Positions 46,900 through 48,500 of a DNA stretch of 64,000 nucleotides are shown piece after piece. The stretch spans positions 626 to 64,625 of the forward strand of contig JABDAZ010000011.1 in assembly GCA_013288945.1 (NCBI GenBank). Direction: 5' to 3'. Within the stretch, counting starts at the first letter, position 1, and each line of letters opens with the position of its first letter. The position numbers and the translations under genes were made by a program. The stretch is from Bacteroidota bacterium (GTDB taxonomy: Bacteria; Bacteroidota; Bacteroidia; Chitinophagales; Chitinophagaceae). The notes beneath the pieces are model-generated. The model did no database searches. It was not told where the DNA came from and worked only from the letters and a program-made list of their open reading frames with translations.

Positions 46900-47370
46900 T
46901 TATTCTTTAAAAATTTGCACGTTCCTGTCAAAACTTTCTTCGAGAGATATAAAAGTTTCTGTGCGTTCGATGCCTTTTATTTTTTGCAACTCATCATGTA
47001 AAACAAAACGAAGCTGGTTAATATCTTTACAAACAATTTCTGCAAACATGCTGTAGTTGCCGGTTGTATAATTTAAGCGAACAATTTCAGGAATTCTACG
47101 GAGCTCTTTTGCAACGGAATCATACAAAGAACTTTTTTCCAAATAAATTCCGATAAAAGCAATTACATCATAACCCAACTGTTTTAAATCAACATGTAAT
47201 TTTGTGCCTTTAACAACGCCAGATTCCTGCAATTTTTTTATGCGCACATGAATTGTCCCGCCGGATACAAATAATTTTTTACCGAGTTCTGCGTAGGATA
47301 TTTCAGCAGTTTCAATCATTTCCTGAATAATTTGCAAATCCAATTTGTCAAGATTTAATTTACTGCTCAT
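46900..47370 (-). CDS. Lrp/AsnC family regulator (AsnC-like)
   Basis: LDKLDLQII..ELGKKLFVSGGTIHVRIKKL..YTTGNY..TETFISL. Confidence 0.92.
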   Translation of the reverse strand: MSSKLNLDKLDLQIIQEMIETAEISYAELGKKLFVSGGTIHVRIKKLQESGVVKGTKLHVDLKQLGYDVIAFIGIYLEKSSLYDSVAKELRRIPEIVRLNYTTGNYSMFAEIVCKDINQLRFVLHDELQKIKGIERTETFISLEESFDRNVQIFKE

Positions 47371-47519
47371 AATAATAATTATTTTTAGCTTTTATTCATG
47401 ATTGTATGCAAATATTTGAATTATCTCTAAATATTCAAAATTTTTGTTGAAAATATTTTAATAAATTGAGATTATTATTTAATATTGCATCATCAAGTTC
47501 TTTAAAACAATTCAAACAC

Positions 47520-47686
47520 TGTGGAGTGATGGAATTTTGGCAGACATGCCCTCTTGTCTCGGGGGTGGAGATAACAGGATAAACGTAGTGTAGTGCCGGA
47601 TCAAGCAATTGGTTCGACTGGGGTTGACCACCACACATTGCGCTACAGCTAACTGCTCCGTGGAGGTTCGATCCCTCCCTCTACAG
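47520..47686 (+). ncRNA. tRNA-Asp(GUC)-like RNA with ~96-nt structured variable arm (167 nt)
   Basis: Acceptor TGTGGAG/CTCTACA, D-arm ATG-GAATTTTGGCAGA-CAT, anticodon arm CCCTC-TTGTCTC-GGGGG, T-arm GGAGG-TTCGATC-CCTCC, discriminator G. Confidence 0.85.
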
Positions 47687-47697
47687 CAATTTTTTTC

Positions 47698-47728
47698 AAG
47701 CCCTTTCATTTTTTGAAAGGGCTTTTTT
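47698..47728 (+). terminator. Intrinsic terminator after the tRNA-like RNA
   Basis: AAGCCCTTTCA / TGAAAGGGCTT followed by T-run. Confidence 0.85.
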
Positions 47729-47789
47729 ATTATTAATATTCTCTCGTTTCATCATTTCATTTTACAAACAAACTTTACTTTTGCGCGCA

Positions 47790-48500
47790 ATGGCGCAAAA
47801 AAAATTATTAAGGTTTGAAGCGATTAAATCGTTCAGCAACGTGCTGCAATATCCCGAAGGCATTGCCGGAAAATGGAATAATTTTTTTAAAAATAATAAT
47901 CCAATCACGATAGAACTTGCTTGCGGGCGTGGCGAATATACTGTTGGCCTTGCAAAAATGTTTGCTGAAAAAAATTTTATTGGAATTGATTTAAAAGGCA
48001 ACCGCATTTATACCGGCGCAAAAAAATGTATTGAAGAAAAACTTATTAATGCTGCTTTTTTGCGCATACAAATTGATAAGATAGATTATTATTTTATTAA
48101 GAATGAAGTGAAAGAAATCTGGATCACATTTCCTGATCCGCAATTGCGAACTTCAAAAGCAAAGAAGCGATTAACGCATCCAAAATTTCTTCGTTTATAC
48201 CAGCAAATATTAATTGATGGCGGATTAATACATTTAAAAACAGACTCGCCGGACTTATATGCGTTTACACTTTTAGTAATTGAAATGTATAATTTACAAA
48301 TGCACGAAAACTCATCTGATGTTTATGCACAAACAGAAATAAAAGAAGCATTAAAAATTAAAACACATTACGAAAAACTCGACATTGCACAAAGCAAACG
48401 CATACATTATCTTTGTTTTTCTTTACCTGCAAAACCGTTAACTGACATCGATGAAGTTTTACAACAAAGATTAAAATTAAATGAAAGCGCAGTTGATTGA
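47790..48500 (+). CDS. trmB: tRNA (guanine-N7)-methyltransferase
   Basis: ELACGRGEY, ITFPDP, KRL and HLKTD motifs. Confidence 0.93.
   Translation: MAQKKLLRFEAIKSFSNVLQYPEGIAGKWNNFFKNNNPITIELACGRGEYTVGLAKMFAEKNFIGIDLKGNRIYTGAKKCIEEKLINAAFLRIQIDKIDYYFIKNEVKEIWITFPDPQLRTSKAKKRLTHPKFLRLYQQILIDGGLIHLKTDSPDLYAFTLLVIEMYNLQMHENSSDVYAQTEIKEALKIKTHYEKLDIAQSKRIHYLCFSLPAKPLTDIDEVLQQRLKLNESAVD

Follow-up and report, generated by a model that had tools for sequence, protein, structure and literature searches.

A stand-alone tRNA-like RNA with a giant variable arm beside asnC in Bacteroidota, a likely non-decoding carrier for asparagine synthesis

In the indirect pathway to asparaginyl-tRNA, as set out in passages of PMC1635274 and PMC4206432, a non-discriminating AspRS and GatCAB act on tRNA-Asn, and aspartate is converted into asparagine on the RNA. 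According to part of PMC1635274, amidation by GatCAB is promoted by U1-A72, is not hindered by an anticodon with C36, and is lowered by the extra base U20a in N. meningitidis and T. thermophilus tRNAs; the GatB tail lies on the D-loop and near the variable loop (PMC2811023, in part). Excerpts of PMC1904265 report that G49-C65 and A51-U63 block EF-Tu binding of Asp-tRNA-Asn, that the same T-stem does not prevent Asn-tRNA from binding it, and that free Asn-tRNA has a half-life of 7 min. Strong Asp determinants are G73, G34, U35, C36 and C38, with G2-C71 as a minor one and G1-C72 also listed (PMC9976931, in part). Bacteroidetes are named in a section of PMC4206432 among genera with AsnRS, GlnRS and GatCAB and no Asn synthetase, for which a relaxed AspRS was assumed.

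Here we describe a tRNA-like RNA gene from a 64,000-nucleotide stretch of Bacteroidota DNA (the window) that combines features of several of these molecules. It resembles the tRNA-Asn of the indirect pathway in U1-A72, G73, G49-C65/A51-U63 and an association with GatCAB, and the same Asp-to-Asn chemistry on RNA is predicted for it. Unlike tRNA-Asn, it has the anticodon GUC rather than GUU, U37, a Leu-type D-arm and a variable arm of 25-135 nt; it coexists with the genuine tRNA-Asn as a separate gene, stands beside an asnC-like gene, and would yield a product unusable in decoding. Because the anticodon is that of Asp, a discriminating AspRS could load it. With tRNA-Asp(GUC) it shares G34 U35 C36, C38, G73 and G2-C71, but it has U1-A72 in place of G1-C72, G49-C65/A51-U63 in place of G49.U65/G51-C63, U37, a type II core and the giant arm. 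Staphylococcal non-proteogenic tRNA-Gly (PMC7826273, in part) is likewise a tRNA relative with a non-ribosomal job, A51-U63 and predicted weak EF-Tu binding; those RNAs, however, are normal-sized donors to Fem transferases; for the present RNA we predict a chemical conversion of the bound amino acid, and it has no linked transferase. As far as the sections of PMC5389517 covered go, the 3-bp D-stem, the A15:U48-type core and a stem-closed variable arm are common to this RNA, to type II tRNAs (Leu, Ser) and to allo-tRNAs, of which some also carry GUC; the 8/4 or 9/3 acceptor/T geometry of allo-tRNAs differs from the 7/5 found here, further differences are the conserved internal loop of the arm and an arm length that reaches 135 nt, and "Bacteroid" is absent from the main text of that paper. 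Judged by its sequence, the RNA falls outside tRNA-Asp, tRNA-Asn, the allo-tRNAs and all Rfam families.

Structure and conservation of the RNA gene

The features of the locus are collected in Table 1. An earlier note on this DNA had described a cloverleaf with the Asp anticodon GUC, U37, a 96-nt variable region, the AspRS identity elements G34-U35-C36, C38 and G73, and a terminator of its own, all of which can be read directly in the sequence. Its remark that a purine is normal at position 37 holds for 17 of 17 ARAGORN tRNAs of the source genome. The eighth acceptor pair that it proposed (C-1:G73) is not conserved, base -1 being C in 63, T in 49, A in 17 and G in 1 of 130 copies. CCA is indeed not encoded, only C74 following G73 (at 47687), so that CCA must be added; this has no special weight, as CCA is encoded in just 2 of 17 tRNAs of the source genome.

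Table 1. Features of the tRNA-like RNA locus, in window coordinates
Feature	Position	Strand	Remarks
tRNA-like RNA gene, U1 to discriminator G73	47520..47686	+	167 nt; covariance model 104 bits
Acceptor stem, 5' strand	47520..47526	+	pairs with 47679-47685; U1-A72 (A72 = 47685), G2-C71
Anticodon loop UUGUCUC	47554..47560	+	G34 U35 C36 U37 C38; Asp anticodon GUC
Giant variable arm, 96 nt	47566..47661	+	read from sequence, MFE fold and covariation
T-arm with G49-C65 and A51-U63	47662..47678	+	G73 at 47686
Intrinsic terminator	47698..47731	+	47698-47724 plus T run
Candidate promoter box TAATATTG	47480..47487	+	1 mismatch vs TAnnTTTG
asnC-like Lrp/AsnC regulator	46900..47370	-	divergent; 149 bp between start codon and U1

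The acceptor stem consists of U1-A72, G2-C71, U3-A70, G4.U69, G5-C68, A6-U67 and G7-C66, and is followed by a type II D-arm (3-bp D-stem, Leu-like D-loop) in which position 20a is filled (A), the host tRNA-Asn likewise having an extra D-loop base, and by the anticodon stem CCCUC/GGGGG. From the base outwards, the variable arm comprises a 4-bp base helix, a 3-bp helix, a conserved internal loop GAUAAA (47578-47583)/CUAA (47650-47653), a long helix, a variable hairpin and a GG-UUGA-CC-A hairpin. The MFE fold puts the anticodon arm in the wrong place and reproduces the three-way junction of the variable arm; with z -1.9 and 8 of 200 shuffles equally stable, folding energy alone is weak support.

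Comparison of homologues is more informative on the pairing. Among 36 same-genus genomes, 29 matched the element (28 in full, one ended by a contig edge), and a 30th match was to the terminator only. In an alignment of 30 homologues, 96% of cells were paired and 21 of 51 pairs had changed on both sides, with at least one such change in every helix of the variable arm; shuffles gave 8 two-sided pairs (none of 500 reached 21) and slid controls gave 2-5. The covariation called for in the earlier note is thus present, and the three-way junction that it drew is upheld by both fold and covariation, albeit as one lineage's version of an arm that spans 25-135 nt in bacteria. A further 23 shorter and more distant copies had two-sided changes in 17 of 31 pairs.

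The family was collected by searching 3 of the 64 parts of a genome collection with a pattern that spans the D-loop and the anticodon arm. This returned 122 stretches, from which about 2,600 are estimated for the whole, and all 122 titles name Bacteroidota; 137 matches could be parsed and 7 could not, giving 130 distinct copies. Positions outside the search pattern are nearly constant among these: U1-A72 in 129, G2-C71 and G49-C65 in all 130, and A51-U63 in 120, while G73 and C74 each occur in all 137 parsed matches, and every parsed copy has the 7/5 acceptor/T-stem geometry. U37 is found in most copies, exceptions being G37 in five genomes and C37 in two, and G33 occurs in 9 of 137. Three parts of the arm are general: the base helix of 4 bp, the helix of 3 bp and a 6x4 internal loop, RAYAAA/CUAA. 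The loop occurs in 121 of 130 copies, and the pair that closes it distally is complementary in 115 of these (shuffles: mean 76, maximum 90); the GG-UNGA-CC-A hairpin is optional (80 of 130). An exact TAnnTTTG, which we take to be the Bacteroidota -7 box consensus, lies 90-10 nt upstream in 66 of 112 distinct loci, compared with 7 (at most 18) in shuffles.

The element is a single copy in the source genome (73% complete), which also has an ordinary tRNA-Asp. Existing tools do not see it: in two of the checks named in the earlier note, ARAGORN called no tRNA in the 64-kb window, the element included, and Rfam returned no family at E-value or gathering thresholds, its sub-threshold matches falling mostly on the terminator. 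No paper describing the RNA was found (a mention in supplements of tRNA-database or motif screens, which lay outside the scope of the search, is possible), and the portion of PMC8007984 covered has none at the terms searched. The same note's remark that no such family was known to it therefore stands within these searches, and we regard the RNA as a conserved, uncatalogued RNA gene of Bacteroidota and viral contigs.

Several variants were encountered. Two tandem copies with a UUC (Glu) anticodon lie beside asnC and are otherwise intact (L524, G190:C1:3852069-3852400). A 77-nt form (L227, G286:C23:55337-55413) occurs in a genome with asnA; its anticodon is AUC, its variable loop has 7 nt, and both U1-A72 and U37 are present. 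Arrays of 2-5 tandem RNA genes were seen at L140, L162, L099 and L014, some combining short-arm and long-arm versions. Near a contig end of G116 (L198, G116:C10) there is a 3' tail only, which lacks the D-arm and the 5' strand of the acceptor and has duplicated terminators on its flanks; the copy of G100 is ended by a contig edge, and G209 and G282 have second, weaker copies that could not be parsed.

Viral members number about 200 stretches. G73 is present in all 112 parsed viral copies, with U1-A72 in 105 and A1-U72 in 6; their variable arms measure 21-102 nt (one longer parse appears wrong), and the forms of 90-95 nt are called tRNA-Asp by ARAGORN. No asnC was found beside the viral copies in 120 loci, and 22 viral loci have at least two other tRNA calls. 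In many copies (among L380-L499) the GG-UNGA-CC-A hairpin is followed by a short inserted palindrome. One viral copy, compared with the GenBank phage collection, gave no match.

The asnC neighbour and the genome profile

The best NCBIfam match of the divergent regulator is AsnC PRK11179 (160 bits, under the 227 cut-off), and its best PDB match is E. coli AsnC 2CG4 (E 4e-32). The layout is like that of E. coli asnC-asnA, in which asnC is also divergent and separated from its partner by a similar distance (151 bp, versus 149 bp here), except that the partner is an RNA gene rather than asparagine synthetase A. E. coli AsnC switches asnA on at low asparagine. The arrangement recurs, in answer to the earlier note's suggestion to collect homologues beside asnC. 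Of 69 loci that offer 700 nt of upstream DNA, 44 have asnC in divergent orientation to the RNA, all 47 asnC matches are divergent (at 124-365 bp), and asnC is present at 25 of 34 RNA loci drawn by taxon, the window included. It is often absent from copies of Saprospiraceae and Cyclobacteriaceae. In one of 20 asnA/asnB regions examined, from a genome without the RNA (G162), asnC faces asnB. Clustering of neighbours within about 1.5-3 kb yielded no recurrent partner enzyme or aminoacyl transferase; asnC is the sole neighbour found across the sampled families, other clusters being lineage-limited. Immediately downstream in the window lies trmB (tRNA m7G46 methyltransferase, 47781-48500), a neighbour repeated among close relatives only.

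The source genome has GatA, GatB, GatC, AspRS, AsnRS and GlnRS, and no AsnA was found in it; since GlnRS is there, GatCAB is not needed for Gln. Two AsnB-like genes score above the generic TIGR01536 cut-off and below that of PRK09431, one of them lying among glycosyltransferases and the other not. To place this profile among relatives, 150 genomes of the class were searched with a covariance model, which found the long RNA in 26. True copies scored 95-127 bits and were separated from ordinary type II tRNAs; a long 59-bit match (G096), confirmed by the pattern, was counted as a true copy, and matches scoring 50-63 bits over 81-87 nt were taken, on these two measures, to be ordinary type II tRNAs and left out. 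The independent pattern recovered 24 of the 26; it also matched the 77-nt form of G286 and, in G316, two sites that are not the element. Class tallies include an unpublished genome (G281) as GatB-positive and RNA-negative; it contributed no sequence, and no conclusion depends on it.

The RNA is present in 26 of 111 GatB-positive and in none of 39 GatB-negative genomes; Fisher values on this profile overstate the association because kin are not independent. In the five families with both RNA-bearing and GatB-lacking members (f1, f25, f27, f66 and f97) the RNA was seen in GatB-positive members only. GlnRS and GatB occur together in 19 genomes: the RNA is present in 14 of them, a GatB-AspRS fusion in four, and neither in one (G314, 210 contigs); among the 92 with GatB and no GlnRS, only 12 have the long RNA. 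The long RNA is absent from all 19 genomes with E. coli-type AsnB and all five with AsnA. Other classes of the phylum have it in 1 of 113 genomes (G179). It is important to note that 76 GatB-positive, GlnRS-negative and 21 GatB-negative genomes have no RNA, AsnA or E. coli-type AsnB, so that either the RNA is not the sole solution or these organisms are auxotrophs.

The four fusions (G238:C19, G272:C47, G301:C8 and G328:C57) join GatB and a second AspRS of bacterial type in one frame of 1,110-1,120 aa, in genomes without the RNA. Discrimination by AspRS follows a His31/Gly83 rule. Three of the four fused AspRSs were read and have RDHG at the motif site, as do the non-discriminating structures 4RMF and 4O2D; the site reads RDLG in E. 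coli and RKFG in the source genome. In the main AspRS, a motif of the His31/Gly83 type is absent from all examined genomes with or without the RNA (77 N-termini, a few of them unmatched by the motif expression, alike in both groups), and it is thus uninformative on discrimination within the class. No archaeal-type non-discriminating AspRS scored over the cut-off in the 150 genomes. One archaeal-type AspRS-like gene (L312, G131:C7:9485-10822) was seen in a genome with no match to bacterial-type AspRS or GatB. An apparent absence of AsnRS from three RNA-bearing genomes proved to be an artefact of the search cut, a second-type AsnRS being present in five of five genomes checked. These enzymes (L323-L327, in G225, G248, G213, G293 and G320) have 507-524 aa with a long helical-looking insertion, and replace the usual AsnRS in some families.

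A proposed carrier for aspartate-to-asparagine conversion and its rivals

The source genome's ordinary tRNA-Asp carries the opposite set of marks (G1-C72, G49.U65, G51-C63 and A37). By combining the AspRS elements with U1-A72 and an Asn-type T-stem, the RNA unites the code for Asp charging with those for Asn amidation and EF-Tu exclusion. Taken together, the observed structure, conserved identity marks, gene linkage and genome profile lead us to regard it as a stand-alone RNA with a type II (tRNA-Leu-like) core that is likely to be a non-decoding carrier for asparagine synthesis.

We infer its transcription, charging, amidation, release and regulation as follows. Transcription would depend on AsnC and start under asparagine shortage, in the way that AsnC acts on asnA in E. 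coli. RNase P, 3' trimming and CCA addition would yield the mature RNA, which AspRS would load with aspartate via GUC, C38, G73 and G2-C71. Once aspartylated, the RNA would be withheld from EF-Tu by its G49-C65/A51-U63 T-stem and amidated by GatCAB via U1-A72. The asparagine might next be set free, or handed to tRNA-Asn, for use by the ordinary AsnRS, leaving the RNA to be recharged; U37 and the giant arm would likely keep it off the ribosome. Lying near the position of the GatB tail, the arm could either clash or dock. Release is the demanding step: if spontaneous, roughly 4-8 x 10^5 copies would be needed at a 4-h doubling (cell protein content being assumed), and at 0.6 per second about 1,000-2,000 would suffice for the same assumed demand. 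As hydrolysis without a catalyst appears too slow, we predict the involvement of a protein or of the conserved arm loop; no release factor for the Asn-RNA was found.

Some observations sit less easily with a carrier. The host AspRS could be relaxed, and the source genome has its two AsnB-like genes; given that relaxed AspRSs occur (PMC4206432, in part) and that tRNA-Asn keeps U1-A72 (in five of five genomes checked, with the extra D-loop base), an indirect route free of the RNA is possible. Position 20a is occupied, and U20a lowers amidation elsewhere (PMC1635274, in part); the listed Asp element G1-C72 (PMC9976931, in part) is missing from the RNA. Variants also count against it, namely UUC in both copies of G190, AUC together with asnA in G286, and G37 in five genomes.

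The earlier note's view of an intact tRNA mimic, as opposed to a decayed tRNA or integration scar, is borne out by conservation, covariation and linkage to asnC; duplicated 3' tails in some genomes (G116) are what a functionless scar might leave, but given the invariant acceptor and T-stem positions, the enrichment of promoter-like boxes and the conserved synteny we give that reading practically no credence. It is also very improbable that the RNA decodes, whether as an odd tRNA-Asp, as a tRNA with a spliced insert, or as an Asn-carrying reader of GAC/GAU causing regulated Asp-to-Asn substitution. The viral forms that ARAGORN calls tRNA-Asp, the many viral copies within tRNA clusters and the EF-Tu binding of Asn-tRNA with such a T-stem (PMC1904265, in part) fit decoding; U37 in most copies, G33 in some and the ordinary tRNA-Asp of the source genome speak against it, as does an arm that, as the earlier note also held, is no intron, since its length is continuous from 21 to 135 nt, its base helix is closed and Rfam gives no intron or ribozyme match.

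Two non-decoding alternatives carry more weight, though both seem unlikely. The charged, perhaps amidated RNA might give Asn or Asp to a transferase acting on lipid, cell wall or protein, much as staphylococcal non-proteogenic tRNA-Gly does; a T-stem that by its sequence predicts weak EF-Tu binding, a non-decoding loop and a conserved arm loop that could bind a transferase would suit such a donor, and the release problem would be avoided, but no transferase recurs in the neighbourhood, and both the exclusion with E. coli-type AsnB and the asnC layout favour asparagine supply. A regulatory mimic, acting as an AsnC-controlled decoy or sensor of AspRS or GatCAB (or a charging reporter) with no net asparagine production, appears similarly improbable. 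Binding would require the synthetase and GatCAB marks just as charging and amidation do, and the divergent regulator, the viral copies without asnC and the demanding flux for a carrier are all compatible with a mimic; it would leave unexplained the tandem copies and the finding that GlnRS-positive genomes retain GatB almost exclusively alongside the RNA or a second AspRS fused to it (18 of 19). The non-decoding role that the earlier note suspected thus remains likely, while the decoy, donor and sensor options it listed overlook U1-A72, the Asn-type T-stem and the dependence on GatB.

Returning to the carrier, a fuller proposal towards which we lean only slightly is that many Bacteroidota have replaced asparagine synthetase by a dedicated tRNA chimera that does not decode, is under the control of AsnC and shuttles between GatCAB and a discriminating AspRS, the giant arm recruiting or providing release, with phages carrying it as an auxiliary metabolic gene and the UUC variant perhaps serving glutamine. 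Conditional on the carrier function, the RNA would be a new RNA class: a tRNA-like RNA that serves to make an amino acid instead of to decode, that escapes ARAGORN and Rfam, and through which an RNA gene stands in for an asparagine-synthetase gene, in a large part of a major phylum and in viral contigs. It would explain the retention of GatCAB in AsnRS- and GlnRS-positive Bacteroidetes via a route requiring no non-discriminating AspRS, a point left open in the part of PMC4206432 covered; it would change the asparagine auxotrophies predicted by genome-based metabolic models; and it would add an RNA to the auxiliary metabolic genes of phages.
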